The notes beneath the pieces are model-generated. The model ran no database searches. It was not told the origin of the DNA and saw only the letters and a program-made list of their open reading frames with translations. Below are positions 18,611-62,449 of a stretch of 64,000 nucleotides of DNA, piece by piece; the stretch's first letter is position 1, and the number at the start of each line of letters is the position of its first letter. Made by a program: the position numbers and the translations under genes. This stretch comes from Tubiluchus corallicola (taxonomy: Eukaryota; Animalia; Priapulida), in NCBI GenBank assembly GCA_030141605.1, contig JAQGDQ010000143.1, positions 62,001 through 126,000 of the forward strand, given 5' to 3'.

Positions 18611-18643
<33 letters not shown>

Positions 18644-22825: not shown

Positions 22826-23143
22826 GTGCTGCTCAAGAACAACAAACAAAATTGTGGCTGGGGGAGCATGTGGAGGGTTCAGTTTAACCCTGAAAAAATT
22901 TTGAAGACTGTTAGCAGCTAATGGCTGTTGTGGAGTTACATTATTGAATAACTTTCACCTGTGTTCAATTTATTTCCATCTTTATGATAGATTGTTTTAT
23001 TAATCTATTACTAATTGTTTTTAAAATCTGCTTGCGCAATCTAATCTTGCATACTATTGTATACATCATGTCGATTTTGGAAAAGTGGGAAAAGTGGAAG
23101 CTCAGAAACACTGCCAAAGATGATGATTCAAATTTTTTAACAG

Positions 23144-23277
23144 GTGGCCAAGCAGCCACTCAAGCATCAGTTCAACAGCAAGCTCAGCCAACTAGCCAAG
23201 CTCAGCCAGACTACAGTGCCCAGTGGGCAGAATGGTATAGGCAACAGGGCTTGTATTATGGACAAGCTCAAGGCCAG
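23144..23277 (+). CDS. FUBP1: FUBP-like exon, Tyr-rich motif 4
   Basis: AQPDYSAQWAEWYRQQGLYYGQ, compare FUBP1 GQPDYSAAWAEYYRQQAAYY. Confidence 0.88.
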
Positions 23278-23555
23278 GTATGTTGTTGACTTTGAGACTG
23301 GTTTTTGAACAAATTGTGCTGATTATATTTTATAAACATTTACATTTGTGATATGTTTTTGTTAGCATTTCATTTAGGATGAAAATGACCGTGAATCAAT
23401 AATTACTGAATTTATGCATCCACCATAATTTTGTATTATGGTAGAAATGCTGATTTGGGGATATTTAATTCACATTTCTGTCTGGCTAAGGCAGCCTGCA
23501 AATCAAACGACAATTTTATTTCAGTGAGTGTAGAACAGATCATTTTTATAATCAG

Positions 23556-30357: not shown

Positions 30358-30731
30358 CTAAAATATAAAAACAAAACATTAGTTGCATTAACTGAGTTTT
30401 TTACTTTTATAAAAACTGAGATAACGCAATTAATGTACTGACATTTCTGTACAATTAAGAAAAACTGTAAATTATAATTGTACAGTATTAAACAAAACAA
30501 AACAGTCGCAAGGAATTGGGCATGCATGATGATTCTTTAATAACAAGAGCAGAAAGTAGTTAATAAGATAATTACAGCAAAATCGGCAGACTATTAACTA
30601 ACAAAGTAATTCCAATTCCAGGTTTTCCTAATAGTGACAAAAGCGATCAAACCATTATCATGATTTAAATTATTTAAATTAAATACACTTAAGTGCTAGT
30701 GATTCAATAAGTTTTATTATTCAATGTTTAC

Positions 30732-31964: not shown

Positions 31965-32382
31965 TTTAGTTCCTGGTGTCCTATTAATGTTTTATCCTGC
32001 GATCTAAAATCGTAATATACATAAATTTAAATATTCATTGTAAATAATCAAATACCTGTAATCAAAATGTCGTCAACCATCAAACATTACATTTACATAA
32101 AACAGTATTTTAACTTCAAATGCAGCATTTGAATAATTTTATAGAAGTTTGGTAGTCATTATTATGGTGGTTGAATTTGCCTTGGAAAGTTTTTTCGAAG
32201 TCACATATTTGTGCAATTATGCACTGCACACTTTAGAAATCTTATAAAAATTCTTGTTCTATTGATGCCAAAGCTGAAGCAAATTTCTAGTAATGTTCTG
32301 CAACGGCCCTACCAAGATTTTGTCCATTCTTTCCAGGCAGTTCCCTGCAACTTTTCCTGCAGTCTCCTCGATTTTTACGGTT

Positions 32383-38300: not shown

Positions 38301-39003
38301 TTCTGGGTCTCAGATAATTCTGGAATAGAGTTTTCTAGTAGACACTCTAAATGCTCAGGGAGTAACTTGTAGGACTGGTTTCTAGTTGTATCTCCTATAG
38401 GCTTAGTTGGCAGTGGGACAGCCATTGCATATTCATCTTGCTTACTCTCCCCATTCGATTCTTCCTCATCTTTGAAACATATGATCGTACGTCCATCCAG
38501 CTTTAAAATTCCTTGCTTCATGCTCAGTTTACCATTTCTCTCTTCCATTATATCGAGACCAAGTATTCCCACTGGTACTCCAAGAGAAGCAACAAGTACT
38601 GTTGTTGACTTTGTAATTCCTCCAGTTTCCAGAAGAAAATCTGTTTCACCCAACTGATCCAGCATGTTTCCATTTGCTACTCTCAGAGGCTTCTCCACAG
38701 GTGTTAGTTCTGGTCTTTCACTTTCAGGCAGTTTGTAGTAAAAGTACAGATCCACAATGGTGGCACTTGACCCACTGTCCACTACAAGATTGACATCTTG
38801 CTCATCAATGTTTGCATTAATATGCCAGCTGAGTTTGTATTCAATTGGCTGTACTGTTATATCAAATTTAAAAGGCTCGTCCCCAAGGTCTGCGTCAGAA
38901 AGAGCGTTAATATCTTCCTCATCCAGAGCTTCTGCTAGTTTGTTTTGTCTGGTCACAGGGCTGGCCAGAGACAATGTACTGGCCCCGTACCCGGTCTCTT
39001 CTA
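35346..39003 (-). pseudogene. pol: Gypsy pol (protease, RT, RNase H, integrase), fragmented
   Basis: PR VVDSGSSAT; RT SPWASPIVLVNKKDGSTRFCVDYRQLN, LDLASGYWQV, YIDD; RH DTDASNMGIGSVL, TDHAAL, GNADGLSR; IN GHQG...CKYCPAC, IDITGPL, HTDQG, SDGLVERMN; C-terminal WTGPF. Confidence 0.95.
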
Positions 39004-40327
39004 GTTTAACGGTGAGGATACTGTTTTTGCAGCAATATACTCTATAGCTCTCCCCTCAGCTTGTGGTCGTCTTTCATTAGTCCCAGTAACTGCTTGACGT
39101 CTTCCAGGGAGTCTTTCCTCACAGTTTCTGGCCATATGTCCTTTCTGGCATCTGTAGCATTCAACATTTTGGGAAAACTCATAGCTTCGTCCTGGCAAAG
39201 CTGGTTGCCAAGGCCTGATTACTGCTCTTCGTTTTTGGTTATGACTGTTAAATGAATTACCCTCCTTTTTTTTCTTTATTTCCATCACTTCATTTTTCAA
39301 AGATGACATCATACTCATTAATTCTGCTATTTCTTTGTTTTTATTAATGTCTTTGCTCTGGTGTGAAATCTGATTAGCTTGTCTAGATGAAGGTAATGGC
39401 TTTCTTAGTCGAGCCTCCTGGACTTCATTAGTAACTGCTTCATATTGGGTCACCCTTGTTATGGCTTCATCCAGCGTCTTTGGCTCCTGTAGGCTTGTGT
39501 GTTTTCTTAATTCCAGATCTCCCAGTCCCTCCAAGTATTCATCAATTAATAGTTCCTCACTAGCATCTCTTGGAATGCTTGGATAGGCCATTCCAAATAC
39601 ATGACGTATTGCAGCCCCATATTCTTCTGGTGTTTCATTTGGTTTCTTATTCCTATGGCGAAGCTCACTTCGGTACTGCAACATATCAAACCTCTTCTTT
39701 AAGGCATCTACCAGGTTCTCAGAAGTAGTGTTGCCATCTATTCCTCCCATAGCTTCCATAGCTACTTCAAGTGCATCTCCCTCTAAACAAAGTGGTAAAT
39801 GCAGAATTCAATCACCATGAGACCATTGGTTGTATACAGCTGTCATTTCAAATTTTATAAGAAATTGTTTGAACTGGTGAAGGCCTAATTTGAATCTCAT
39901 TTTGCAATTCGTCATCACCACTGAATACATTTCCTTCAATGGACCAATGACTTCCTGGGGTATTGGCTTGGCTACTGGGCCTATCTAAGGTATAAGTATC
40001 CATTGAGTAGTTTTCTTTGAGTAAAGGCCTCTGTGGGCTATAAGGTGTGGAAGCCATAGAGGGAGGTTGAGCTCTAAATTTAGGTCTAGCGCCCCCTGAA
40101 TACGAAGATCTACTTTTTGTTAAATTGCTTCTGTTAAGACTACAAGCTCCTTCTAATGTAGACTGCTCAGGTATGGGCACAGTCTGTGGCTCTGAAGCCA
40201 GTGATTGTAGGCCTGGTGCCTCATCTAAGCATGTTTCGTCTGATTCAGAATCAACGTCAAAGAAGGATTGCATATATTTTAGAAGTCCAGCTATGAATGT
40301 AAAGAAACATCTTCCTAGTCTAGCCAT
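39001..40327 (-). pseudogene. gag: Gypsy gag (frameshifted near 39848)
   Basis: YNQW...LPLCLEGDA, ETPEEYGAAIRH and PKTLDEAI capsid-type motifs; knuckle CYRCQKGHMARNC (one residue short of CX2CX4HX4C). Confidence 0.85.
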
Positions 40328-40362
40328 ATTGTGTCATAATCCACTATTTGTAATGAAGCCAA

Positions 40363-42579: not shown

Positions 42580-43031
42580 GAGACATTTGTAAATTATTTG
42601 GGGTACCTCTCTTGAGATGAGACACTTGACAACATCAGAGTGCTTGAAGGCTATTTAATTTACAGCTTTAGCTCTGGCATTAAATAAACAAAGCACACAA
42701 TTTGTCGTAAATTTTATTAATATGCATAAGTAAAGCTTTTTCTTTGTATCTCCAACTAGTAGGTTAAAAAGTACATGTAACTTACGGGAACATGGCAGGT
42801 TGTCACTGTTTTATACCCATTATTTTTTTGTTCTATTATGGTTTCCTGTTGTTCTCACTAACTTGCCTTTCACTTTTGCAGTACTTCTCTCATAATTATT
42901 TTTTTGAAACTGTTTTTGATATGTCAGCAAGTTTTTACTATTTATCTACTCGTTGATAAGTATGCAACTAGTGCTTGCTAAGTATTGTGCATTATGATTA
43001 CCTCCATGTTTAAGGGTTAAAGATTTAAAGG

Positions 43032-43697
43032 ATGAAACAAAAAAAGCTAAACTATTCATTGTTGAGAGACAACGATGATGGAGGTGACGTGCTTCTTAAT
43101 GTGAAAGGTGGCGACATTTCAATCCAACTCAAACAGAAATCATCATGCAGCTATATGCGCTTGTTATGTGTCATTTTGCTTGTGACAGTGCTCATTGGTG
43201 TATGTTTTCAATTTAATTTGCTGTGGTATCTAAAGAAATTTATAGTAACTGAACCTGATGTGACTAATGCAAGAACTACTGTAACGCCTCCTGCAAGTGT
43301 TAACGATGGAAATACTGTAATGTCACCTTCGGTTGCCAAGCCCTATTGTCCAGCTATCCCTAGTGCTCAAAAGTTTGACTGCTATCCTGCAGATGGTGGC
43401 GGCGAAGAGAAATGTACTGCCAGAGGTTGTTGTTGGGAAATTCCTGCTGGTCAGGCTGTAACGCCATCGCTCAATCCAACTGCAAAAGAATATAATGATA
43501 CTCTGTTACCCCCACTGTCAGTGCCATACTGTTACTACCCTGCAGATTACCCGAGTTATTCTATGGTTAGCCATCATGAAACGCCATTAGGTTTCACTGG
43601 TACTTTAACAAGAACAACTTCATCACCATATCCACGTGATGTGATGACACTTCAGCTTGATGTAATGCTAGAGACTCGGACAAGACTTCACTTCAAG
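43032..43697 (+). CDS. GAA: Lysosomal alpha-glucosidase (GH31) coding exon 1: cytoplasmic tail, signal anchor, trefoil domain. Whole gene 43032-60708, ~983 aa
   Basis: KFDCYPADGGGEEKCTARGCCW...VPYCYYP trefoil; YPRDVMTLQLDVMLETRTRLHFK|gt. The 18 exons, taking one of each duplicate pair, sum to 2952 nt in frame. Confidence 0.95.
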
Positions 43698-44505
43698 GTA
43701 TAGTAGTTTATTAATTCAAAGGTATTATCTCTTCATGGGTTCTTAATATCCAGGAAATCGACATGATAAATTAACCCTGGTGACTAGACTTTATAGAAAT
43801 TCGACTAATTCTAGTCATGCATTTATACTGGTTTGGTAGTTGCCCCTGAAGTATGGGCTTGATCCTCTGCATTCTTGGTCTCTGTTTTAATTATGAAACC
43901 ATGTATTAAAAATAGTGTTGAAAAGAAGGCACATTTTTACAGTTTTCAAAACGGGGTAAACTCTGTGACCAGATTCTGTATCAATGTAGCTTTCACTGCA
44001 TTTCATCAAGTTAATAATTATGCTCTTTATGTAAGTTACACATTGTATAGCTCATTTGTATGTAATGTTCAAATAAAAAAAATGACTTCTCATTAAAAAC
44101 TGAAATTTAAAAGGCAAGTAACAATTAAGTCACTGTTTCTATTGAAAAACAGGAAATAAGCTTAATGGGAGAGTAATTAATTCCCTTTAATTTGCTTGTA
44201 TTTCTTTTCAGCATTACAGTTAGGTATTAAGTAATCTATTTTAGTGTTTTCACTTTCTAATTGAGAGTAGCTCTTTACTTCTCTAGTGCCAGCTGGATGA
44301 AAGGATTTACTATCTTGTCTTATATACATGACTGTAAAAAGATAGTCTCCTAAGTTAACATTAGAATCTTTGCAAATGGCGAGTACCAAAAAGATTTATC
44401 TTATCAATATCCTATTTGAAGTTTTAATTCTGTTATACATTGCATGTCAAACAATTTTTTTACTTGTTAGCCACTTAATGTGTTATTATTGGTCTAAATC
44501 TCCAG

Positions 44506-44651
44506 ATTTTTGATCCGGCTAGTAAAAGGTATGAGGTACCAATTGAAACTCCTAAAGTGACCAAAAAATCAGATGTTCAGGATTATCAAGTCGAGGTTTC
44601 TAGTCATCCTTTTAGTATCAGCGTTACTCGGAAGTCAACAGGAGCTGTAAT
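44506..44651 (+). CDS. GAA: GAA-like exon 2
   Basis: IFDPASKRYEVPIETP...HPFSISVTRKSTGAV; AG/GT. Confidence 0.92.
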
Positions 44652-44721
44652 GTATGTATAATATTGTTGTGTACTATCCAAACTCTATTAGCATAGTATT
44701 TTGTAATTGAATTGATGTTAG

Positions 44722-45415
44722 ACATTGCGTAGTCAAGACCAATACTGCAACTTTTAAGACTAAGACTAAGTAAGATCAGTTATAGAACTTTTTTAATCGA
44801 GTCAATGCCAAGAGTAAGACCAAAAACTACACTTTCACTAAAAATAGTTTCAGCTATGTTAAACATGTCTTTGGAATATTTTTGCATGAATTTCATAGTC
44901 TTTTTGGTGTATTATATGGCAAATAATATGACTAATTAATTAAGCAAGATTTTCCAAAGAAAAGAATTCCCAAAAGCATTGAAAACAGCCAAATTTGTCA
45001 GCATTAAGCAATTGGTACTGCTATTTAATTGAATTTGAAATTTCAATCTATTTACTTTGTATTTTGAAAAGTGTTATGTTGGCTGAATGCCGGCATCGTG
45101 CCATGAGTTAAGTTTTTATATTCCATTATTACACTGTGCTTACCAAGAGTTTGGTGTAACTAATTTAAGATACGTTCAGACTTCACAGGCCATGTCTTTT
45201 CTTTACTCAAGTTTATCTACCCACCCATGACGTATGTACAAATTCAAGAAAGTGGCCATGTAGTGTGTTAGCTAATGTTGTGACAAAATGCTACTAGTAA
45301 TTCTTTCTAGTGAGTGACAAATTAATTGCACTTTGTTTGAAGCGGAATAAATTTCGAGACCAAAACTGGCAAAAATTGGTCTCGACACCAAGACCGGTCT
45401 CTGATTGAACAATCA
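44722..45415. mobile_element. Decayed non-autonomous DNA transposon with GAGACCAAGACC-type subterminal repeats
   Basis: GTAGTCAAGACC/AAGACT repeats on the left and GGTCTCGACACCAAGACCGGTCTC on the right. Confidence 0.45.
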
Positions 45416-45552
45416 GGGATCTGCAGTCTTAACAAGAATGGTAGTCACTTATTGATACGTGCTAAAATAGATCTATCTAACCTTGCACATTTCATTGAAA
45501 TTTAATGAACTTTACTCAAATACAAAATTTTACTTTTTTAACATAAATTTAG

Positions 45553-45718
45553 ATTTGACACTTCTGTGGGTTCAATGATATTCTCTGACCAGTTTATCCA
45601 ACTAAGCTCGGTTTTGCCTTCTGCATTTATCTATGGCTTGGGAGAACATACAGGTAGTTTTCTCATCAACACAAACTGGACACGCATTGCTTTATGGACA
45701 CGGGATCATTTTCCTGTA
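45553..45718 (+). CDS. GAA: GAA-like exon 3
   Basis: FDTSVGSMIFSDQFIQLSSVLPSAFIYGLGEH...LWTRD. Confidence 0.93.
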
Positions 45719-47781
45719 GTAAGTAGAGTATCTATTTCATCAATGTACCAAGGCAAGCTTAGATTATCTTTTTTGATAACTAAAAGATATTTTAAGTAGG
45801 GTGCCAATTTTAAAAAATATATCCAGATTTTTTATCACTTTTTTGCCTTGAAAATATAAAGGTTACAAAACAGTTAAAGAAAATCAAACTTTCGTACCTA
45901 ACTACTTCACTCACAGATGACGTTTTCCATACATGTGTGTGAATCAACAACTTTTTTCTTTGTATGCAATGTACAATTATGATGTTAGCTTTTCTTAAAA
46001 ATTATTAGAATATGGTAAATGATATATTTGTTTTTTTTCCAGATCTTATTTCTTTATAAATTTTTTTGGCATCTTTTCACTGTTCACTTACTACATAAGT
46101 CGATCTCATAAATGTTATATACTGTGTCAACATTTACCGAGTTTATAACAATGGGCGTATCTTGTTGTTTGTATAATACCTATCAGTAAAGTGAATAACC
46201 TGTCCTTGATATATTATCAGCTAATGCTTAAACACAAACTGTGATTGACATGAGATTTATATACAATTTCTATATTACAGGTTCATAATTAATATTTCTT
46301 ACTGTGAGCTAATTCTACTAGCATTTAAGTTCATTTTCCAGATTAGAAACTAACATTTTTTATTATAATAGATTCCAAAAGTAATAATTTTTATTGTATA
46401 TATTAGTCACTTTAGATACATCAGTTTGCCTTGTACAACATGCCCCTTGGTGTATATTAAAGTAAACTTGTCTTTATGCAAAAAACTACAAGACAACAGC
46501 TCGAGAATATTTTTATTTGACTTATGCGCAGTTATTCTTTTGAATAACCTTGAAGCCTCAACATTTATTGATGCTGATATTTTTAGTTCACAGACGAAGA
46601 TATACTTGATATACATGGTTGTGGTGTTGATGTAGATATGCTCTGTTTGGCCGAGTGGTCTTAGCCACATTCCGATCTATCCATATCCTCCCTCAGTGGG
46701 ATAAATAAAACTGGGGTTTTATGCCACATAAAATCACGTAGAAACATTTCTTACTTGTTCACCCACTTATTCACAGCTATTACTTATTCACTTTTGCTCA
46801 CCCATCCACTCACTATACAGACGTATCAGCTATTCTTCCTTGGTCCAAAAACTAGCTTTTTTCACAGTTTAATTTTATGTGCTACTCTTTGCGTTCAATA
46901 CACCGAAGTACCTTGTACTTTAAAACAAAAGTGGCTGAGTGTGTGTTGGGAACATAAACTTTGGAATGTTAAACCTTTCTTGACTTTGAATTTACCTTAA
47001 TATATATTAACTCATTCATTGTAGAAATATTGGCTTAAGCAATTTTGAGTTGCTCCTGACATTAGTAAAATCTGTGTCCAATATTAATTTATTATGGTGC
47101 TTTTACTGGTTTATATGTGGTGCTCATAAGTACATGTGCGTGGGCTTTAAATTAAACTAAAAAAGAATGAGGACACTCAGTAGAGGTGTTGATATTGGCA
47201 AAAATTGATTTTTTACTTTGTGACCTTAACCTTGAGTTTTGAATCAAAAGCAATGATATCCAGATCTTTGCACTGCCCTATCCTTGTACCAGGTTTGGTG
47301 ACTATTTCTTCATCCATATTGATGTTATTGTGCAGACAGACATATGTGACAAAATGCTTTAGCTCTGACTACTGCGGGTATGTGTAATGAGACAACTCAT
47401 TGTATTGACCTAAAAAATATAAATCGTAAAATGAATTATGTAAATTCATGCATAGAAGTGCGTATTCATGAAAACTAAAGTGTAATAGCTTTCATTTTCA
47501 TTAACGAAAGACAGTTGCCATATTTTATGCTGCATTTCAAATTATTCTGTCTGCATGGTACTTCAAACTGCAATGTTTATTTTGAGGCTTCTAGCACATA
47601 ATTTATTATTAGCCATGAGATTTGTTTTTCGCTAATAAATGCATGATAAAACAGTACTAATAGATCAAAATCAAGTTTTCTTATATGTTCTAATCTGACG
47701 TCACTCATTCTAAGCCATTGTGAAACATAATTAGTCTGTAAATGAATTTTGTTTTTTTACACTGATCATGATTATTTTTAG

Positions 47782-47878
47782 GAGAATGCAAATCTCTATG
47801 GTGTTCATCCATTTTACATCGTTATGGAAGAGGATGGCAGCAGCCATGGAGTGTTTCTTCTCAATAGCAATGCTATGG
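47782..47878 (+). CDS. GAA: GAA-like exon 4
   Basis: [30 protein letters not shown]. Confidence 0.93.
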
Positions 47879-48683
47879 GTAGTCACAAATTTTAATCTAA
47901 CTTATTATTAGATTCAGGAAATTGAAAATTAATACCTCTTTTTTCATTCTCACTCACTTATGACAAATTTTTGCAGTTCCTTTCCATGGCTTTTGCTCTA
48001 GGCATTTTTAGATCTATTACGCTACAGAGATTACTCATGTGATCAGCACACTGTGTATCTTCAGTTTGCACATTGTTGTGATGGCAAAAGGTATAACAGT
48101 AGAATACACTTTAGACCTTTATTGATGTAGTTTGTAGAAGATTACAAAGAGTAGGTAAAGAGATGTCTGCATATGAGGTCTTGTAACAGCAAACTGTTCT
48201 CTACTGGGCTAAGCCCATTTTTAGAATAGGGTAATAGACAAATAGGAGCCATCTACCACAGCAGTAGTGTTTTTACAGATTGCTGAGTTAATTACAAATT
48301 AAGAGTAATTTTTTGTAATTTTCCATTCATTCACAATGACACACATCTAAGTTTACAACCAATTAAGTTAGTCAAGAGACACTTTACTACAGCTTTGGGG
48401 CTAGAAAGTAAGTTTGTAAGCACCGAGTAATTTGTAAGGATGAGCACTCGTTTTAGAAAAAACATTAATGTCCGCATTATTTTATTCATATCCTTTTTTG
48501 AAATGTCTTTGCTATAATCCAGGCCTAAGCCAGTTATGCAACACAAATGTGAAGAAGTGGAAGATCTTAAAGATCAGTACATTGTGTAAGGCGTAGGCAT
48601 TTTATTGCGACACTTGCATTAAATATCAGTTAAAAAAAAGAATTGCATAGTTTTAGTTAAGGCGAAACTGTTCTTTTTTTCAG

Positions 48684-48922
48684 AAAATATGCTCCAGCCC
48701 CTACCTGCCATCACATTTCGCACATTAGGCGGAATTCTTGATTTTTACATCTTTGCTGGTCCGTCACCTGCTGCAGTCATTCAACAGTATCAGCAGGTCA
48801 TTGGCTTACCAGCTATGCCACCCTACTGGGGTTTGGGTTTCCATTTGTGTCGCTGGGGTTATGGTAATAGCAAGAACATGACAACCGTGATAAAACGTAT
48901 GAGAGATGCGGAAATTCCTTAC
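48684..48922 (+). CDS. GAA: GAA-like exon 5
   Basis: LQPLPAITFRTLGGILDFYIFAGP...MPPYWGLGFHLCRWGY. Confidence 0.95.
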
Positions 48923-49854
48923 GTAAGTCATAAAATCTTCTTGATGAAGATGTCGATAATGTGTAAAGAATGATGCAATTGTGATGCAACGACAACAGCA
49001 GCTAGTATTTTATTTTGTATCCGATGTAGAAAAATCCTTATTTTGCAAAGAAAAGTCAACAGCAGCTCTTGTTATTTCTAGCTTGTTATTACTAATGTTT
49101 TCATTAGTACCTAGAGCTTTTTTATTAATTGTCATGTGTGGCACAACTATAAGATATCAAAAAATCATAAACACTTTTAAAAGAGCAAGTAGGTGTGTTT
49201 TTCAGTAATAATGCTCTTTTTTAATCTTGTACAATTTTATAACTTTGAAAATTTAATCAGACATTTTGGTTTTCCGACAATATCATGCCGTGACATTTTC
49301 TGCTTTCAGTTTATGACTTGCATATTTTTTGTTTTGTGCATTTTGATTATTTTGCTGTAAAAAGTAATTAAGTATAACAAGTATTCTTATATAGCACCAT
49401 TTCTTTTTCAGCCCATTTTATTATAATAGCCTATCTGTTACTTAAAATCTTATTCTATCACTTTCTTCTTGAAAATTTTTCGACCATTCTTGACAGTCGG
49501 GTTTCATTAATAAATAAACTTTTGTCAGCTTTAAATCTTCACTTTTTCTGTTTAAGAACACTTCACTTAATTTTCACACATAAGAAATTTTGTTTGAAAA
49601 TAACAACTATGGTAGTGGTTATACTAGTAATGATGACAACAACAACAACAACAACAAAATTTGAACCTGGTAGGAAGTGTGCTTCATTGCATAACAACTT
49701 TTTATGATTCAAGAAATAATAGCTTTTGATTTTGAGCACTAATAGTTTAGTTTCTTTTTAAATGACTGCCTAAATCTATCATTATAATTTATGAAGTTTT
49801 AATTTTTAAGTTTTCAGCTTTTTTATCTGCTTCTGCTACTTTCTTTTTCGACAG

Positions 49855-49986
49855 GACGTCCAATGGAATGACATAGATTACATGTCTAAACATCTGGACT
49901 TTACACTTGACGAAAACAACTTTATTGATTTAAATAACATTGTTGCTGATCTACATGCTGATGGGATGCATTATGTACCAATGACA
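49855..49986 (+). CDS. GAA: GAA-like exon 6a (duplicate pair 1)
   Basis: DVQWNDIDYMSKHLDFTLDENNFIDLNNIVADLHADGMHYVPMT; 132 nt, acag/gtaagt. Confidence 0.92.
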
Positions 49987-50029
49987 GTAAGTATTTGCTA
50001 TTATTTGTTATTCTGTTTATTTTACCTAG

Positions 50030-50161
50030 GATACACAATGGAATGACATAGAATATGCAGAAAAACGTCTAGATTTTACACTCAATGACAAAACATATCC
50101 AGACTTACCTAATGTAGTAGAAAATTTGCACAAACATGGTCAGCATTATATCATAATTGTG
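50030..50161 (+). CDS. GAA: GAA-like exon 6b (duplicate pair 1)
   Basis: DTQWNDIEYAEKRLDFTLNDKTYPDLPNVVENLHKHGQHYIIIV; 132 nt, ctag/gtaaga. Confidence 0.9.
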
Positions 50162-51120
50162 GTAAGAACTACTGGTTTTGCTTTTTTTATTTTCTTGAAA
50201 TGAAGGTGGATATTTTTTATTGTTATTGACGTTTTGTTTTGTAAACTCCTTTTTTAGAAGTTATGCTGTTGGCACCTTAAAGTTTACAGATCATGATGTG
50301 TGACTGAAAAATTTATAATGGCACTCTAACTCCAGTTTTATATTATTATTATTGAAAGTAAATCAGCCATTATTAGCATTGATTGCCATGAATAGTATTA
50401 GTTTTGAAATAGTTTTGTTTTTTATCATGAACTAATTATTTGAAATACCCACCAATTTTAACCAAATGCAACTTGTTTGATCAAATGAAATCTAAGCACT
50501 GTGATATATTTAGGATTTTTATGAACTAATATTAAGGTTTTTATTACCATACCAAGGGGACTTTTGTTGTTTTCATTGTAGCAATAGGAACAAATAAGAA
50601 ACAAAAGTCATCACAAACAACTAGGCACAGTTATACACAATTAAGATACAAAATACTGCTATCAGAAGCAAATATTCTTAGCATTAATGAGTGAGGTTAT
50701 CAAATAAAATAGGCTGACTTTAAAACTGTGTCATCTTGGCTATAAACACACTGGCAGAATACCAACATGATTAGCATTATTAGCAAACTATAGATTTTTG
50801 ACATCTTCTTTATTTGACTGCAATTTTTGTATAATTACGACTGACTCGTGAAGATTTTATCGAAAATGTGAATGAAGACAATTGTTTTTCTCATTTTACA
50901 TTCTCAAAAAATTCCACGAGAAATAAATGCTGTTTCTGAAAAGTATTTGATTCCTTCAGCTATCATCTTGATTAAAATAAGAATTACGTATTAAAAGTTG
51001 AGAACGTTGAAGTAATGCTAGGAGATATTGAACTCTTCAACTAACTGACCATCTCAATTTCTCACTAGGTTAATACCGCAGTGTAATAAATATTGAAATG
51101 TGTCTGTCATTTTCCTTTAG

Positions 51121-51234
51121 GATTGTGGTATAAGTTCAACGCAAGGCCCAGGCAATTACACACCTTTTGACCAAGGCATGGCTATGGACATATTTATCAA
51201 AGTAGAAAATGGTTCTATGCCAATTCTTGGAAAG
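51121..51234 (+). CDS. GAA: GAA-like exon 7
   Basis: DCGISSTQGPGNYTPFDQGMAMDIFIK...PILGK. Confidence 0.9.
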
Positions 51235-51373
51235 GTAATTAATGTGATACAGCCAACTGTAATCACCACTCTTGTGTGAGGTGTAGTTGAGTTTGACAGT
51301 AAAATGTTTGTTTTTCTAATATTTAATTGTAAATGATCAGTTTTCCATTTGAATGTTTGAATAGTATTTGGCC

Positions 51374-52033
51374 TCAGGACCATTTTAGCGCATGGGTACG
51401 CTGGGCAGTTGTCTGAGGGCTCCACAAGCATAGTCATGTTATTCTGTGTATTTGTGACACTGCTGTCAATAAATAAGTCCTAGTACCATATTAAATATTG
51501 TATTTGTGAAACTTTCCCTGCATTGTACAGAAAATATTTTTGGTCATCTTAAAATCTGTGTCTCCTAATGTTGAAACTGCACTCAGAGTGTTCATGTGCC
51601 TCACGTCGATCAATTGTGCAGGAGACTTCAATTTCAAGACTGCACAATAAGGCAGCAGCATTTGCACTGGCTTTCACCCATGTATGGAAAATGACATCCT
51701 GAAGACCTTTTACTTCAGACCAATTATAAAACAGTTCTTTACAAAGAAGTTATGCAAATGTTATGCTGTGCTGTCTCCACCTGTATGCAATTGAGTGTCA
51801 TTTATATGCTGAAATTTTTGTGTTTTTCAAGGCTCATGTAATATTGTTGAAATATTTGCTGTAGAACATGTTTTTTAATGCTTAAACATTGATTTTGTTG
51901 GAAATGCCAATATGATAAATATATGTTTATTTTTAACGACCTTTTAAATTTTTATTCCTTTGAGTTGTATAAGTACTGGGCTGCTAGCGCCCTGCTTTGC
52001 TTTGGGGTCTATAATGCTGTTAAGACAGCTCTG
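51374..52033. mobile_element. Possible decayed MITE with imperfect terminal inverted repeats
   Basis: Left CAGGACCATTTTAGCGCAT versus the reverse complement of the right end, CAGAGCTGTCTTAACAGCAT. Confidence 0.3.
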
Positions 52034-52619
52034 TTGGGCTTCATCTTGTCACATTTCCTGTCCTTGGAGATTGTTTTCTTAAACTATTATGATCTGTAGT
52101 ACCTCTCACTAGAGTAAACTAGTAAGTTTTTTTGCTAGTTTCTTTGCTTTGGTATGTATTCATAGACACTGATGAATTAAGTCGTAATTACAATTAAGAC
52201 AGTCCTGATTTATTTTTATTGTAAAATAATTACTTTGGTGTTTGCTAGCTTTATTTTTTCTGCTTTTTCATCTGTACCTGAGATAGTAAATACCATTTTT
52301 TGACTTTTTAGAGATGAACAGTATTTACTGTTTTATGAACATTTTTTATATACTAATTGGACTTTCTTGTACTGTGCAGCAGCATGTATTCTATGAATGG
52401 AATATTGCATAGAATTGCAATACAGCAGTGAGAAATATTGCATAATTTATGTGTACTCCCAAGCTCATTTTGTTTGCTCTTAAGCTTGTCAAATTTCTTG
52501 TGATAAAGAGTAAAATGGAATTGTGACAATAGTTAAACTGCAATGATTTTAGAGGTCTCTTTTCGCTATTAAAACTGAAACAACATGAATAAAGCGATTA
52601 ATTTTGTCTCTGCTCGTAG

Positions 52620-52733
52620 GTATGGCCAGGCATTACTGCATTTCCCGATTTTACTCATCCAAGAGCTGAGGAGTACTGGAGCAAACAGATTGCTGATTTT
52701 CACAAAGTTCTTGATTTTGACGGCTTGTGGATT
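52620..52733 (+). CDS. GAA: GAA-like exon 8
   Basis: VWPGITAFPDFTHP...FDGLWI. Confidence 0.95.
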
Positions 52734-53591
52734 GTAAGTGCACATTTTTCATGCTAGTTTCAGTTCAAAGTTGTGAAGATAAACGCAAATCGTTTAAGGT
52801 ACTTCAAAGCTATAGTCAGAGGCATGTATCCTGCACATTATTTTCACACCTTGCACTGCCCATAAGAAGAATTGTATAAGCTGTTTTTTCTTAACTAGTG
52901 TTCAGTTCTTGGTTGCTGATAGTTACAAAATTAATGGATCCTTATTGTTTTTTTACAATATCATGCCAAATGATTTTGGAATTTAACTTAACTGTAAAAA
53001 TAAGCTTTACAGTTTTTACTTGTTGTTTGTGAACTAGAGTGTAGCTATCACTATGATAAGTATTTATTCACTAAATGTGACAGCATTAGATTTTTTTATT
53101 TTTATATAAGTACTTTATAACATACACAGAGTAGAAAACCAGGAGCTTTTTTATCTGTTTGGTTTTGCAAGCTTGCATACAAATTGTGTGGTGTTTTTAG
53201 TAATTGAGCAACTGTGGTTAATGATTCACTGCTTACATAATTATATGTATTAGGCATCTTACTTTATTATTCGGCTTCTACTTGATTTTGTTTTGTGTGA
53301 TAATTTTTTTTTAAAATATGGAACGTTTGTTGTGAATCACATTTGTGAAGCAATATTGCATATGTGAAGCAGCATTAGTTTTTTTATTTACCATTAATGT
53401 TGTTGTTTTTCTTCGAAATTAATAATGAAATCAAGTGACTGTATGATAGATCTATTGTCTTCTGTCTTACAAATTTGTGCTGCTCATTTTGTTTTGACTT
53501 GAACACAATTTTGTCATAGTAGTAATTTTTTTTAGCAAACCCTTCATATTGCCACTTGTATCACATTTTAATGTTGTGTTATATTATACAG

Positions 53592-53679
53592 GATATGAAT
53601 GAACCAGCCAGCTCAGTCCCCGGCTCCGTCTACGGCTGTGATGAGAACAGTACATTTGACTATCCTATATATACACCAG
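53592..53679 (+). CDS. GAA: GAA-like exon 9 (catalytic nucleophile Asp)
   Basis: DMNEPASSVPGSVYGC...YPIYTP, completing WIDMNE. Confidence 0.95.
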
Positions 53680-54020
53680 GTCAGTTTATGCAATTTAGAC
53701 AAACATTTTAAGCATCCTTAAGTGAACACATGCTTTCTTTATCATTTTCTAAAAGTTATTTATACTGTTCATCAGTCTAGAAGCTGGGATTTATTACTCA
53801 ACAACAGAGTTTGTTTAATGTTAATGGTTATGGCAAGACCGGAGCCTTGATATTTGCCAAGAATTGTGCTCTTATATGAGGCACTCAACCTGTCTTAGTT
53901 CTGTTTAGATTTTTTAGCCTGAAGCCCTGAACTTGGCAAATAACTATGATATCATGGCAAATGAAACTGCCCAAGATCATTACAATGGTTCTTGTATTTA
54001 CTGACTACACTCTGTACTTA

Positions 54021-54242
54021 TTAACTTTAGTCATTAATTCACAAGAAAACTTTCACTTACGTAAAGCTTAAAACTTACATGCTATCTTATTGCATACAAT
54101 AATGCTGTATAAAACGTGAAAATTTAATGTGCTGGTTAACTTTAGTCATTAATTCACAAGAAAACCTTCACTTATGTAAAGCTTAAGACTTACATGCTAT
54201 CTTATTGCATACAGTAATGCTGTATGAAACGTGAAAATTTAT
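54021..54242. repeat. Intronic tandem duplication, two copies, 115-bp period
   Basis: TTAACTTTAGTCATTAATTCACAAGAAAAC...GTGAAAATTTA at 54021 and 54136. Confidence 0.9.
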
Positions 54243-54861
54243 ACTCCCGCATTGACCGTTCGGCATGGCCATTTTGACGATAAGTTATTTAAAATAAGTT
54301 TAGATAACATTGAGTAAAGTTTGAAAATATAATCACGGCATTTGTAGCACACCCTTCACTAACTAAGCAAAATTTTAAATTACAGTACCCTTCATTAACC
54401 CCTTTTCTGGTTCTTTAAGCAACATTGCAACCACTCATCTATTTTTGCTCTTTCCAATTCCCAGTCCTAGGGAGATGTATTGTTCTGCACATAGTTTAAG
54501 TTATTTAAGTTGGCACAAAATCACTGATTAGAATATTAAAAACATTGACACAAAAGCGTTGAAAGAAATGAAAGATTTAATGTTTTGGTAATGAACTTAT
54601 TGTATTTGCAAGATGAAAATGATTCTGAAGCCTGCCTTACATGTGTATAAAATCTCTTTACCATGTGCATAGTTTGCTACTAGGTTTCCAACTTTTTAAC
54701 TGAGGTCATTTCCATAAAGCTTTTCCAATTAGATAGACCTAATACTCATGCTGTGGAGAATACAAATGATTAAATAGAAGCATGTTATAAAAATGTGTAA
54801 AAACTTAATGTAATTTTATTTTGTTTGCTACTGCAACTTAAGTACCGATTTGTATGTTTAG

Positions 54862-54979
54862 GTATAGTAGACGAATCGCTACTACAGCGCACGCTTTGCC
54901 CCTCAGCTAAGCAGTATGCCGGTTCCCATTATAATCTCCACAGCTTATACGGCCTTACAGAAATGCGAATTACTCAAAG
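54862..54979 (+). CDS. GAA: GAA-like exon 10a (duplicate pair 2)
   Basis: GIVDESLLQRTLCPSAKQYAGSHYNLHSLYGLTEMRITQ; 118 nt. Confidence 0.9.
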
Positions 54980-55037
54980 GTGAGAAATAGTTTTTCTCAG
55001 TTATCTTGTTATAAGGTTTATGTTTTTGCATGTGTAG

Positions 55038-55155
55038 GTATAGCAGACGAATCACTACTGCAAGCCACACTTTGCCCTTCAGCTAAGCAGTATGCTGGTT
55101 CCCATTATAATCTGCACAGTTTGTATGGCCTTACCGAAATGCGAGTTACGCAGAG
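55038..55155 (+). CDS. GAA: GAA-like exon 10b (duplicate pair 2)
   Basis: GIADESLLQATLCPSAKQYAGSHYNLHSLYGLTEMRVTQ; 118 nt. Confidence 0.9.
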
Positions 55156-55537
55156 GTGAGAATGAACTTGTCTGCATTGCAGACGCACATTAAATTATTT
55201 CGTCTGAATGTTTTGACAAAGCACAAGTTTATTTTGAACAAGACGTGTTACATGCAAAAGCAAGTGAAGATTCGATAAAGCGATAAAATGTGATCGTGCA
55301 TTGGTGCCAAGTTGCCAATGTTTTTTTTGCAAATTCTTATAAATTGCTTTAGTTTTTGCAGATTTAGTAACATCACCTATTACAATTAGGTATTGTTATT
55401 TAGAAGGCGCAAAAAAATAGCTATGCTAATGAAAAAAGGGGTAAAGCACTAATTATCTATCAACCTATGATTAACTATCTAAGTTAAATTAACAAGTTTT
55501 AATGATAGGTAAGTGAAGTGTCTATGTTTGTTTTCAG

Positions 55538-55671
55538 TGCTTTGCTTAGCTTAACAGGGAAAAGGCCATTTATCATTTCTCGCTCATCGTATGCCAGTGC
55601 TGGCAAACATGGAGGACACTGGTTAGGAGACAATGCAAGCCAGTGGAAGGATATGTATCTTTCTATACCAG
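55538..55671 (+). CDS. GAA: GAA-like exon 11 (acid/base Asp)
   Basis: GKRPFIISRSSYASAGKHGGHWLGDN. Confidence 0.95.
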
Positions 55672-55902
55672 GTATGAATCCAATTCCAAGCCTGGTGTAG
55701 ATCTTATTTAAATGGCATAAGGAATTTTGTGTCATTAGTTTTGTTAACAGTAGGGTTAATCTACTACATCGAACATATGTTTTTTTGTTATAAGCTACCT
55801 TGCTTTACATTTAATAAACTCTACTAAAATTAATTAAATCTGTTTAATTCAGTTTCTTATAATTTTGTTTGGACAGACTCGTTAGGTTGACTGTTTTTGT
55901 AA

Positions 55903-56097
<195 letters not shown>

Positions 56098-56639
56098 TAA
56101 TTACATTCAGATGAAATATTTCTGGCAGAGTCAAATTTTTGTAAAAAGTACAAGGAGTTGTAACATGAACTAAAGAAATGTAAACACTGTAAAGCAGTGC
56201 CACAGATGGGTTCTATCTGTTAGTGCCAGACAAACAAAAAAAACGAAAACTGAAGTTATATTGAAATTTGTTAATTATATTTTCACATATTAACATGAAT
56301 TCATATCAAAATTAAATAAAAGTTGTGTATTTGCCTTACTTCCTGAGCGATTTGTTAAAGTAGCTGTTTTTGTAAACTATCCAAATTGGTTTCATTACTT
56401 ACAGTCTTTGGTATTTGCAAAAGAGCGTTTATCCTTGCAATTATGTGTAAGAGTGCTATGTGCTACTGTAATGATTTAAGGTAAAAATATAAATAATCGT
56501 CAGTATAGTTTAAATTATCTGAAGGGCGTATTCTAAGAATACAAAAGTCAGTCATTTCTTTAATCGATATGCTAAAGTTAGACAAATGATATAAAATCAA
56601 GAATTAGCAATAGCAATCCTTTATTTTTACTGATGCTGA

Positions 56640-56837
<198 letters not shown>

Positions 56838-56949
56838 TAAGTAAAAGTCATTCGATTAAGGTGATATCATGTAGGACACGTAAAAATTATATTTCAGTAA
56901 GAAGTGTGACTTCATTTACAAATTATTTTTGCCCTTTTTGTTATTTCAG

Positions 56950-57034
56950 ATTTCCTACTGAGCAGATAACGTACAGCATTGATAAGCAGTTTATGTGGGG
57001 TGAAGCTTTGCTCATTTCACCTGTTCTTACTCAG
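56950..57034 (+). CDS. GAA: GAA-like exon 14
   Basis: FPTEQITYSIDKQFMWGEALLISPVLTQ. Confidence 0.93.
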
Positions 57035-57901
57035 GTAATTTATTCGAGACGACGCTACCCATTTAAAACTTTATCTTTGTGCCTGAGAAAAATTCACAAG
57101 ATTTTTGTTTTTGTTGTTGTTATTTTTGTTATTTCTTTCTGTAAAAGCTTTGCAATTAAATCCCGATTCTATTTTCTACGCTGGACATATCATGCAGCTG
57201 GCCCATACATACTCCCATGCGTACTAGATAAATCCGGGGTATGTCATTTATTTTTACACAGTGCTTGGAACCTTGCTGAAGCTCATTGTCTTTGACAGTG
57301 CACATGCATTAGCACAGCAGGCAAAGTCAGTGTAAAATAAATGTGTTTGCTTAGTTTTTGCACTAAATTACGATAGTTTATGCAGTTAAAGAAAACATAA
57401 CTTTTTAGGTGTTTCACAATATTGTGAATCAGTCTATGCTCACAGCATACAAATTTCAGTAAAAGTTTTGGTATTTAGTAGCAAAAAATGATATGATATG
57501 GCAACCACGAGTTATTGGCAAGCTAGGCCAAAGTGTTGATGATCACTGACATACTTCATTTAGCATAGTTTCATAGTCATAATCAAACCAAAGATATTAC
57601 TGTATGCAAAAATACGTCATATTGTTACATGTCTTCATATTTGCAAAACTGCAAAAACTGAGATTCTGCCTGCTATTATACGTGAGAGTTAATGGATAAA
57701 ACTATTGAACTTTACAAGGCTTTTTAATCTGTATTGGTAGTGCTGAAAGTAACAAACACTGTTGTGAGATGTTGAAAAGCAGAACAACAGATATGGAATG
57801 TTTTTTGTTTTTTCAATAACAATTATGCATTAATGACGTTTTTCATTATAAATATCTTATGAATGAAGCTCATTATTTGCATTAGTTTAATTTTACTATA
57901 G

Positions 57902-58083
57902 GGAGATCTGATGGTGGTGGCATATTTTCCTATTGGTAGATGGTACAATTTGTTCACTAATGAAACCGTTCACTCAAACGGTCAATACCAAATGCTAGAT
58001 GCTCCTTTGGACACAATTAATGTGCACCTACGAGAGGGCTACATTGTGCCAACACAGGATCCTGCTGTTACCACGACACAAAG
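57902..58083 (+). CDS. GAA: GAA-like exon 15
   Basis: AYFPIGRWYNL...LDAPLDTINVHLREGYIVPTQDPAVTTTQ. Confidence 0.93.
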
Positions 58084-58881
58084 GTATGTGCCAATTCTAT
58101 TCATGTTTTTGACTTTGTTACTTGTTTTCTTTTTGATTTTTTCTACAAAGTACATGGTCAAATCTACTCGAACCATTTTCATCGACAAGTGTATAATGCA
58201 GTAAATGCTCCTTAATAGGAATCCTAGTTAAAGGTCTTTAGGATTAAGAATATTTTGGCCCAATTAACTGATTAGTTAGTTCATGTGCATCAAGAATGCT
58301 CTCAGCAACTGTCTTGATCATGAAAAACTATGTTGCCTAGTGGTCAAGATGTTGGCTTTGTAGTGTAAAATGTCCCTGGTTTAAATCCAGGCTTGGTCTT
58401 GATTATTGTCGCATTTCCATCCTTTCGGTAAGATTTGGTTATAAAAATTTACTGATTGTAGATCATTTCTCATAATTTGCTATAACTGTTGAAGTGGTTA
58501 ATCTCTCGTCTCGTGTCTGTTGTAGCTACCTATATTTTCTTGCTAACGAGCAAATGATTTTTTTACAGTGTGTTTAGTAATGCTTAAAATACAGCTGCTA
58601 AAACTATCATTTCATAATGTCAAAGACTGGCTAACGAAATTTATCTAGCATTGCCTTACTTTTACTCTGATATATAATTTTGTCTACTTGGCAGAGAAAC
58701 AGCAAATATAATTGTGGTAGGTGGAGTCTTTGGTATGAATTTTTTGCAGAGTTGAACTCACACCTTCCAGATGGTACGTAACCAGTTAAGTTATACCATT
58801 GGTAACCCTTTTCTATATTGTTTCATGTATATATGCAGCGTATACAAAAGATAATGCAGCATAGATCTTTGATTTTTTTAG

Positions 58882-59020
58882 CCGCAAGAATAATTTTGGA
58901 TTGTTAGTCGGGCTTCCCTCATCAGGCATTGCCACAGGGCATCTGTTTTGGGATGATGGTGAAACAATAAACACGTTTGAGTCTGGTAGCTACAATTCCG
59001 TCCGTTTTAATGCATCGCTG
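58882..59020 (+). CDS. GAA: GAA-like exon 16
   Basis: RKNNFGLLVGL...ATGHLFWDDGET. Confidence 0.92.
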
Positions 59021-59636
59021 GTATTTGCTTTACACTTTACTACCTTTCTTGCATTTTTAAAATTAGAGATTGTAGTTTGTTTAATTGTGCTTGGATAATT
59101 ATTGTGCATTATTTAATAATTAATATTATTTAGTGATATTTGATAATAGCCGTTATTAGCATTGCACTGCCATATCTTTTTATTTACTATTTTGCAATCT
59201 AATTTAAAACTTAGAAAACACAACACGAAAACACAATTAGAATACACATACAATAATTGGAAAGTTTTACCCATGTTCGCTTGTTTTCCTCGATCGACTT
59301 GTGAAACTAACAGAAAAAATATAAGTGGAAAGCTATTATTCTTTCTTTCCATGAAACAATTCTAACTAAATCTTTGTTCTATTTTGTAGTTTAATACTGT
59401 AATTTCGTGATTTCTTGTGCAACAGCTTTTGCTTACACTTTTTGTAATACTGCTTTTTCATTCAGGATTCCGCACAAGGCCTGGAATAAAATCACACACT
59501 GCGAGTTAGGAAAATATGCTGGCAAATTTGTGTTGGAATTTAAGGTGTTCACACTGTAACGTCCCTGTTTAGAAACATAAACCAAGTTGATAACTGACAG
59601 TGATTCATATGATTCATAATTTAATATTGTATGCAG

Positions 59637-59786
59637 GCTGATGGCATAATGACAACCGTAACACACACTGGTTTTCCCACAAGTATGGTTTTGGGGTCTG
59701 TTAATGTGTATGGTATGGAGCCAGGACCTCTATCTGTTACAGTAAATGGAAAGCCAGCCAGCTACCAGTATGATGCTTCAAAACAG
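59637..59786 (+). CDS. GAA: GAA-like exon 17
   Basis: LGSVNVYGMEPGPLSVTVNGKPASYQYDASKQ|gtaaga. Confidence 0.9.
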
Positions 59787-60627
59787 GTAAGATTATGTGG
59801 GAGTATTGAACAATGGGAAAAATTTTTGCTGCATTGCGGATAGCCGTGATAAGTTGATCATAGTAAGCAGCGATAGGTGTATTATTAAACCTGGCTAGAA
59901 TTTTCCTGCCCTGAAATACAAACAAAAGCTTTCACTGTAGTTAGAAGTCTGATTTTCCTTAAGCATACTGCAGGTGTTGCTGACTGTGATGGCTATTGCT
60001 GTTAAGGTGTAAAATGACATTCTCCTCAGGCATAGTAAATGCCGATAATTGCAGAACCAAGTCATTTGCAGAGTGTTGATCTTTCATTTGTTTTGTTCCT
60101 CTTCATCAGTGGGCTGATAAATATATAGTTTTCAATGTCCTGCTTTGTTGTTACCCTTCATACGTGCTTAACAGTCTTCCTTTAAAATTTGTGTAATCTA
60201 ATTTAGTCTAAAGTCAAAACAAAAAATGGTCTAAGCAAGTATATAAGTATAGGTCCCGTAAAGGTTGTCCCAATAAATGCTGATCGTGTAGTAGTTTTTA
60301 AGCTAATTGTTTGCGCAGTGTTAGACAGGCCACCACTCAACACTGTTTAGTCACCACATGAGCTGTTGTATCTACCACATGAATTCTTGCTGTCTTTCAA
60401 ACTTTAATTCAGCATGTTTGCGCCTAGCACAATGATAGTTTTGAATCACTAATCAAAAACAAAGTTGGTGATCAAATCATTACAGCTTTAGCTACCTAAA
60501 ATGATTTTTATCTTTTACAAGATTTACAAGACAATAATTTTGTCCAAGTTTAATAACCATCAAACTGACAAAATATAGTTTATTAAGCCTCTTTTTATAG
60601 CTTCTAAATACTGAAATATTTTTACAG

Positions 60628-60708
60628 TTGCTGCGATTGTATGAGATATCTGAGGATTTCCTAAAACCAATTTCCATTCTGTGGAGGCTACCAGAAAGAA
60701 AAATTTGA
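60628..60708 (+). CDS. GAA: GAA-like terminal exon 18
   Basis: tttttacag|LLRLYEISEDFLKPISILWRLPERKI*; hydrophobic pattern and Trp match GH31 C-termini; AATAAA at ~61957. Confidence 0.75.
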   Translation: MLRLYEISEDFLKPISILWRLPERKI

Positions 60709-62449
60709 TCAGAATTAAAGAGCTTGAAAGGTAAATTGTAGAAGGTAAAGAAATCAAAACCAAATTGAGTAACATTTAATTTGTGTGCATGTTTTTTACA
60801 TTTTAACCTAGAACGATGTGCATATAATCTGATGTTATAGTATTTTAAGTAATCGTTTTGCAATTGTGGGCTCTCAACGGAAATTGTAATTAAGTTTCAA
60901 GTACATCAATATATACTTCCTATTTTTAAAAAAAAGAATGAAAAATGTAGAAAAGTTACTGAAATTTTCAATGTTTTTAACACTGCAAGTTTAGTAATTA
61001 TGAAGTAATTAATCAAATCAGTATTTAATTATCTTATCGCTCTTTCTGTTTTCTATGTGTAAAATACTTGCTTCTTTTCGATGTTCTTTGCTGTAGGATA
61101 TTTTTGTTGACTATTTTCTTGTTGATCATTAAAAACTATTTACCATTTGCAACTTAGAAGTTCTTAAGTCTCCTTTTAATTAAGGAGGTTAGCACACGAT
61201 ATTACTTCTCCTGTTACAATTATAGCTGCCTTAAAAACAAAATTATGTTCTTCATGTAATTTATGTAATTTTTTGCCTATTATTCATTTGGAATTAAAGG
61301 AATTATGTGTGTTAAAATCGTGTAATTTTCCATCTTGAAAAGAGTCTCCAGGTCTTCTAAGTTCATAATTGAGCTAATTGTTTGTTATGTCAAGTGTAAC
61401 TACTTCCATTCATTAAATTAATGAATGTGGTGCATTATGTGTGTGTGCAAGACTTCAATGAAAATTTTGTAGCTTTGCTGACTAATTAGGGAAAGATGTC
61501 GTCAAGGTTAAATATCATGTTTTTAGCTGTTTCTAGCATGTGCTTGGAATTAATTAGAATCGTTCTGAAATTTGTTTGAAAGGAATTACAATTGTATAAA
61601 TAATGTATGCCTATGTAATCAATCACTGTTTGAATTCCAATTGATGTTAGCACAGCAAGCTAAACTAGTGCTTGGAGTATATGTATGTGATATAACATAG
61701 TATTACATTATTTCCCTATAGGCCTTTGTAAAAGTTCAAGAATTGTCTGTGATACCTACAGTAGTTAATCAATCTGTCTGCAGAAAATTTCCAAGTATTG
61801 TGTTTATGATGTGTAATTCAACATTGTCGTTGCCATACATGTGTAAGCATGATGGATTGCCATGGTCATGTAATGTATAAATGTGGATTGTGTACATGAA
61901 GTGGGACATTAGATTACTGTACAATGAATCGTGCCAATATGAATATGTAAATGTACAATAAATTTAGATATATTTAATAACAATATGTTATTTACTGCTT
62001 TGCTTACTTTTTTACTTATTCACTGTTTATCAGAGTAACATATAGGTAATAATAATCAGGATCACCTTGGAAATAAGTATCAAGTTACTAGAGGTGTTAT
62101 TCCTGGACAATATTATACGTAAACGAAAGTATTACATTACCGATGTGAGCATTACTCAAGCAAGTCAGCAGTAAAAAGTAACTAGGTCATGTAATTGACA
62201 ATCAAAGAAGAGACGCAAAGATGTCGAGAGAACACTCTCTTTTTTATTTCGGATCAAACTGTGACAGACACAAACGAATTTTATTTATGTCTTTTGCAAA
62301 TTCTTATTGATGTGCACTTTGGCATAAGTTTTACTACGATAGTTTTAAACATGATTAGCTAATGTTTTAGGAAGAGAGAAAGTCACCAGGCATGAATGCA
62401 CTTACAGTGGCCCACATTAAGTAGTTATTTCTATTAAATTTACAAAAAG

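Follow-up and report, generated by a model that had tools for sequence, protein, structure and literature searches.

Sucrase-isomaltase (SI) and maltase-glucoamylase (MGAM), GH31 relatives of acid alpha-glucosidase (GAA), carry diverged catalytic units in one gene, and these units differ in specificity. Their history involves duplication of the whole enzyme unit, which leaves all pocket residues free to diverge. Tandem mutually exclusive exons, by contrast, yield isoforms differing in nothing but one homologous segment (PMC9741552). Such exons are a known class in enzymes, where the variable residues often lie near functional sites (PMC7954323, PMC9741552). In OGDH, the homologous exons 4a and 4b are held apart by a donor-to-branch-point distance of less than about 50 nt (PMC7969005). 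For human GAA, the catalytic assignments are D518 and D616, subsite -1 is lined by D404 and I441, and subsite +1 is formed by R600 and D282 (PMC5653652); L405 is also listed as a pocket contact (PMC8928985).

Here we describe a GAA-like gene with two pairs of tandem homologous exons in a 64,000-nt stretch of the genome of the priapulan Tubiluchus corallicola, hereafter the window. Each pair resembles OGDH 4a/4b in consisting of two homologous exons in an enzyme gene. However, OGDH has a longer intron with distant branch points, whereas the whole spacer of the exon-6 pair is 43 nt, and the window gene has two such pairs, known here from DNA alone. Compared with the whole-unit duplication of SI and MGAM, the window gene would swap segments of 44 and 39 residues, with most pocket residues shared. 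Its predicted protein is like human GAA in the trefoil, GH31 barrel and C-terminal domains, the catalytic motifs and the residue correspondence, but differs from it in that its N-terminus is predicted to form a membrane anchor preceded by a YxxL tail. Our preferred reading, which we hold to be fairly probable, is that this intact gene uses each pair in a one-or-the-other manner and thereby makes up to four isoforms that differ modestly in kinetics, pH response or stability, and not in the linkage cut.

Architecture of the gene

The gene, assembled by hand, comprises 18 coding exons at positions 43032-60708 of the forward strand (Table 1). Its open reading frame is intact and encodes 983 aa with either exon 6a alone or exon 6b alone. 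A Pfam search revealed a trefoil domain, the PF01055 GH31 barrel and a C-terminal GH31 domain in the predicted protein. Matches were obtained from five of seven exon peptides; the two 38-aa exon-10 peptides gave no Pfam match, although that of exon 10a does match GAA chains. Both the nucleophile motif WIDMNE and the acid/base motif WLGDN are intact in translation, and homology suggests acid alpha-glucosidase activity and a lysosomal location. No third copy of any glucosidase exon was found in the 64-kb window.

The N-terminus (43032-43230, forward strand) consists of a short YxxL tail followed by a hydrophobic stretch, and the Tyr and Leu of the tail are conserved in Priapulus and in a further homologue (P0027). 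This organization suggests that the glucosidase precursor may be membrane-anchored and sorted via a tyrosine signal. At the start of exon 7 (51121-51126, forward strand), the constitutive D443 is followed by a Cys, where Pro is usual; Cys occupies this position in 1 of 126 homologues.

On the reverse strand, just upstream of the glucosidase gene, lies a broken LTR retrotransposon (about 35349-40333), spread over several frames and including domains of the RNase H and integrase types. The window also contains, on the reverse strand, a 762-aa open reading frame of the SLC26-type sulfate permease/STAS kind (3992-6277) and a DUF4795 open reading frame (28906-31991), and, on the forward strand, a KH-domain gene (about 16053-23286), presumably resembling FUBP.

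Table 1. Exons and tandem-pair spacers of the GAA-like gene (positions within the window; residues in human GAA numbering)
Feature	Positions	Strand	Remarks
Coding exon 1	43032..43697	+	short tail with YxxL motif, hydrophobic anchor, trefoil domain
Exon 2	44506..44651	+	
Exon 3	45553..45718	+	
Exon 4	47782..47878	+	
Exon 5	48684..48922	+	constitutive, upstream of pair 6; GH31 barrel starts here
Exon 6a	49855..49986	+	first copy, 132 nt, phase 0/0; D406/M408, M441, T442
Spacer 6a-6b	49987..50029	+	43 nt, GT...AG; no candidate branch adenosine more than 24 nt from the 6a donor
Exon 6b	50030..50161	+	second copy, 132 nt, phase 0/0; E406/A408, I441, V442
Exon 7	51121..51234	+	constitutive, downstream of pair 6; first residue is the D443 equivalent
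Exon 8	52620..52733	+	last residues are W-I of the nucleophile motif
Exon 9	53592..53679	+	first residue is the nucleophile Asp
Exon 10a	54862..54979	+	upstream copy of pair 10, 118 nt, phase 1/2; residue 555 is Arg
Spacer 10a-10b	54980..55037	+	58 nt, GT...AG; distance of candidate branch adenosines to the 10a donor 20-41 nt
Exon 10b	55038..55155	+	second copy, 118 nt, phase 1/2; Ala at 555
Exon 11	55538..55671	+	acid/base motif
Exon 12	55922..56073	+	human 631-677; single copy in window; swapped between Ptychodera isoforms
Exon 13	56688..56836	+	
Exon 14	56950..57034	+	
Exon 15	57902..58083	+	
Exon 16	58882..59020	+	
Exon 17	59637..59786	+	
Exon 18	60628..60708	+	carries the stop codon

Two tandem exon pairs

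Both pairs are adjacent homologues of the same length and phase (132/132 nt, phase 0/0; 118/118 nt, phase 1/2). For the first pair, the original prediction had described two AG/GT-bounded, stop-free exons with a 43-nt spacer, strongly diverged within a retained framework and matching about residues 399-442 of human GAA. Each of these points was verified: exons 6a and 6b are identical at 78 of 132 nucleotides and 22 of 44 residues, and each copy aligns to GAA 399-442, a segment that we take to be exon 8 of the human gene. The two peptides also align to the same stretch of PF01055 (positions 39-81 for 6a and 39-82 for 6b), and 6b carries three more basic residues than 6a. A search with the 6a peptide gave 10 matches among 12 candidates and a search with 6b none among 2 candidates, and no full-length protein of a close relative was found in the homologue search. 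Five metagenomic loci picked up by a scan with the 6b motif were all unrelated chance matches.

The second pair, 10a/10b, went unnoticed in the original prediction and is younger than the exon-6 pair, its copies being identical at 101 of 118 nucleotides. Most of the nucleotide differences (13 of 17) fall at third codon positions (p = 3e-4), and an early stop would arise at aa 643 with both copies and at aa 593 with neither. The copies align to about residues 547-585 of human GAA and differ by three amino acid changes, the one non-conservative change being Arg versus Ala at human position 555. Of 132 homologues examined, 124 were scored here, and this position is occupied by Lys or Arg in 93 of them and by Ala in 13. 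A docking table, a weak source, gives Ala555 as an acarbose contact (PMC8928985). The choice between 10a and 10b would switch this Arg to Ala on the rim of the pocket. The intron before exon 10a contains a non-coding 114-nt tandem duplication (54013-54241, 93% identical), adjoined by a very high-copy repeat at about 54268-54387.

Swapped segments in other animals

Isoforms were surveyed in 176 proteins of 600-1400 aa, which form 177 pairs at an identity of at least 90%, and internal exon-sized swaps were found in three lineages among these pairs. In the crinoid Anneissia japonica, isoforms X1/X2 and X3/X4 (XP_033124429-432) are all 888 aa long, and 23 of their 23 differences are located in the exon-6 segment. 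In lancelets, the exon-10 segment contains 16 of 16 substitutions between X1 and X2 of Branchiostoma lanceolatum and 17 of 18 in a B. floridae hybrid (XP_066291229/230, XP_078610240-242). In the acorn worm Ptychodera flava, all 11 differences between X1 and X2 (XP_070579688/689; P0199/P0317) lie in the exon-12 segment, which includes F649 and H674. In four hemichordate GAA-like paralogues (P0199, P0200, P0203 and P0204), the nearly invariant Tyr407 is replaced by Ser.

These isoform sets, which are automatic RefSeq annotations compared at the protein level, resemble the window gene in their equal or near-equal lengths and in a single exon-sized block that differs, the crinoid block corresponding to window exon 6 and the lancelet block to window exon 10. 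Unlike the window gene with its two pairs, each deuterostome set shows one swapped block in the pairs compared. Of 10 invertebrate clusters, selected in part because isoforms were listed for them, one showed the exon-6 swap, and a further 16 clusters showed none. The swap count over the 177 pairs leaves out one truncated Branchiostoma isoform and the Nothobranchius pairs, whose differences lie in the last exon. Given its youth (86% nucleotide identity), the window exon-10 pair is far younger than the lancelet pair and thus likely independent of it, unless gene conversion homogenised the window copies. Among these annotations, the crinoid isoforms are the best outside evidence for alternate use of such copies, and the enzyme family seems to have been tuned by exon swapping more than once.

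Probable effect of the exon-6 swap on the active site

The exon-6 swap had been predicted to recode the substrate pocket, a claim that proved overstated. Position 441 does differ, being Met in 6a and Ile in 6b, but W402, D404 and position 405 are identical in the two copies, and the +1 subsite lies outside the exon. Among the three listed pocket contacts, 441 is the only one altered, and the equivalents of R600, D282, W376 and W481 are all encoded in constitutive exons. In addition, 15 of the 126 homologues have Met at this position.

A model of the crinoid protein (pLDDT 91.7), which superposes on human GAA with a TM of 0.92-0.93 over full-length chains, assigns to exon 6 a strand (345-348), a helix (369-378) and a second strand (382-387); folding the X3/X4 form from its sequence alone gave a pLDDT of only 32. 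Based on the confident model, exon 6 would constitute one strand-loop-helix-strand unit of the barrel, in which the sugar-binding Asp would be left unchanged by the swap. Choosing 6b in place of 6a would replace D406/M408 by E406/A408 in the loop that follows this Asp, and M441/T442 by I441/V442 at the floor of subsite -1. Human D406N and M408V appear in Pompe screening or patient reports (PMC7423004, PMC13160774), which indicates that the loop matters for activity or folding.

These changes could be taken to mean that the mutually exclusive isoforms have sharply different substrate or linkage preferences, like the domains of SI and MGAM. Half of the exon-6 residues differ, a subsite -1 contact, I441, becomes Met in 6a, the human variants show that positions 406 and 408 matter, a brittle-star protein and the alternative crinoid copy also have the rare E406/A408 pair, and all three segments swapped across animals contain pocket or rim residues. 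However, the residues at 402, 404 and 405 are unchanged, R600 and D282 of the +1 subsite are encoded constitutively together with W376 and W481, and Met441 is present in ordinary homologues, so that we consider sharply different preferences unlikely. A linkage-specificity switch could operate, but would have to do so with the +1 residues unchanged. Tuning is likelier than a new linkage specificity, and a shift in kinetics, pH profile or stability would be the likeliest outcome of the swap; the original likening to the domain duplication of SI and MGAM is probably too strong.

Signs of selection on both exon-6 copies

The conservation panel comprised 131 homologues, of which 126 have the search motif and five lack it. 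At the 18 columns conserved in at least 80% of the 126 homologues, 6a keeps 16 residues and 6b keeps 15, and the two copies agree at 13 of these 18 columns versus 9 of the 26 variable ones (p = 0.03). We simulated neutral decay by placing all divergence on one mutating copy, with 20,000 trials per direction. Frame and splice sites stayed intact in 1.6% and 0.85% of the trials for the two directions, none of the 20,000 trials per direction was both intact and in possession of at least 15 of the 18 conserved residues, and none reached 22 identical residues. Both exon-6 copies look selected, and the simulation is also compatible with selection on both followed by the recent death of one. Every change of 6b at a conserved column is also present in single homologues, so the isoforms could be nearly equivalent.

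Splice sites were scored with a matrix trained on 15 constitutive donors and 15 constitutive acceptors. The values for 6a (5.9 and 5.5) and 6b (8.5 and 6.8) all fall inside the constitutive ranges (-0.3 to 9.1 and 0.1 to 10.2), and exon 10b, with 3.9 and 4.0, has the weakest sites among the four duplicated exons.

It could also be that one exon-6 copy is used in practice, the other being recently silenced or very minor. In line with this, the splice scores of 6a are below those of 6b, 6a has residues that are rare in the family (N425 in none and T442 in 2 of 126 homologues), and the low-quality gene model of Priapulus has a single annotated exon-6 copy. We nevertheless judge disuse of one copy improbable, given that both copies remain intact despite 41% nucleotide divergence, an outcome rare in the neutral trials and never combined there with retention of the conserved residues, and that both forms are annotated in a crinoid.

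Spacer geometry and the proposed choice between copies

Apart from the two spacers, the 17 introns of the gene span 113-2063 nt. All adenosines located 15-40 nt from the acceptor of the 43-nt spacer are at most 24 nt from the 6a donor, a distance too short for U1 and U2 together, so that 6a should not be joinable to 6b. This is far less than the steric limit, put at about 50 nt between donor and branch point; that limit is a vertebrate value (PMC7969005), and the minimum intron size of this animal was judged from one gene. As a transcript including both 6a and 6b would stay in frame (1027 aa) and escape removal by decay, a block at the level of splicing is needed, and the 43-nt spacer likely supplies it. 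Steric blocking fits the geometry of pair 6, the branch adenosines being candidates.

According to the proposed mechanism, the 43-nt spacer would sterically prevent the joining of 6a to 6b, one copy being chosen per transcript. The 58-nt spacer of pair 10 is probably also too short for double inclusion, and two one-or-the-other choices would yield up to four enzymes of equal length. Around the two exon pairs, 23 and 6 pairs of inverted repeats were scanned (70-93% complementary, mostly AT-rich, no shuffle control), and none represents a convincing docking/selector pairing. The mutually exclusive splicing originally predicted for exon 6 is thus well supported, if indirectly, by the spacer geometry, by selection on both copies and by the crinoid isoforms, whereas exclusive use in Tubiluchus itself is what we infer from the sequence.

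The inclusion of 6a and 6b together, adding 44 residues with the reading frame maintained, would be favored by the canonical GT/AG ends and the pyrimidine tract of the spacer, and some animals splice introns of about 43 nt. However, an extra helix-strand unit would then enter the modelled barrel, the motif occurs twice in 1 of 126 homologues, which has a second partial domain, the shortest other intron of the gene is 113 nt, and co-inclusion of pair 10 causes a frameshift, all of which makes double inclusion very improbable. It is hardly conceivable that the assembly set two alleles next to each other and so created the pairs: one run, recognized as DNA by its coverage of introns, covers 50076-50226 at pair 6 without bridging the pair, but divergence between the copies amounts to 41% of positions in pair 6 and 14% in pair 10, while the longest contigs of that run are about 0.2-0.5% from the window. 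A second run matched two repeat fragments within 43000-61000 and nothing within 48600-51300, which speaks neither for nor against alternate use of the copies.

Ancient origin or repeated duplication

The exon-1 peptide has its closest named match in Priapulus caudatus XP_014672594.1 (E 6e-39), the other matches being an unnamed protein (3e-40), an insect protein with two matching stretches (1.5e-36) and a next one at 5e-25. Among 133 homologues, the Priapulus protein ranks first for exons 1, 2, 6b and 10, stands between 4th and 38th for five further exons, and comes close to the bottom for eight that are poorly covered or missing in its model. A full-length tree did not group the window protein with Priapulus, whose model lacks many exons. 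This model (P0028) also contains the exon-9 segment twice, letter for letter, where the window has one copy; the doubling is probably an assembly or annotation artefact.

Exon 6b and the crinoid X3/X4 copy have E406, A408, R411, N417 and N430 in common, and among the 126 homologues E406/A408 is found together only in one, from a brittle star. In a shared-rare-residue score, the 6b-crinoid pair, selected for scoring after its likeness had been seen, stands at the 99.5th percentile of background pairs, and the 6a-6b pair at 88.6. In the best 44-column exon tree, 6b groups with the two echinoderm E/A sequences, but support for this is weak (53/82), and a sister grouping of 6a with 6b is not rejected (p-AU 0.33), so that ancient and independent duplication are not separated. 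Three observations count against an ancient origin: Pro440 is in the D/M copy in the window and in the E/A copy in the crinoid, the uncommon L416 is common to 6a, 6b and Priapulus, and Priapulus exon 6 scores nearer to 6b yet has D406/M408.

The E406/A408 shared by 6b and the crinoid copy may reflect either ancient origin or convergence, and an ancient origin of the exon-6 pair is possible but less likely than not. In a wider scenario, the pair would be older than the protostome-deuterostome split: priapulan-like worms and echinoderms would have retained an E406/A408 copy next to a D406/M408 copy for more than half a billion years, and vertebrates would have lost the pair. With the swaps of exons 10 and 12 added, invertebrate GAA genes would use splicing to make a limited combinatorial repertoire of active-site pockets that truly differ in substrate preference. 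We regard this scenario as rather doubtful.

Discussion

Our preferred reading remains modest tuning of one enzyme by two one-or-the-other exon choices. The original prediction knew of no report of such exons in GAA, and our search agrees: no tandem exons in GAA or GH31 are reported in the literature searched, most subscription papers being outside its scope, and none in supplementary files from two catalogue papers, although the complete gene lists of these papers may lie elsewhere. GAA is likewise not named in the main text and one supplement of the human tandem-exon paper. As a mechanism, short-spaced tandem exons are well known, which limits the surprise. What is new is the second tandem pair 10a/10b, the isoforms of other animals that swap the exon-6, the exon-10 and a third pocket segment, and the E406/A408 common to 6b and the crinoid copy. 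What most merits further work is that the swaps recur at the same exons in different phyla.

If this reading is true, invertebrates would more than once have acquired exchangeable active-site segments in a housekeeping lysosomal enzyme of which humans have a single form. Pairs of isoforms would then represent natural substitutions, in the same background, at positions 406, 408, 441, 442 and 555 of the Pompe disease enzyme, and the control exerted by loops over GH31 specificity would become directly testable.
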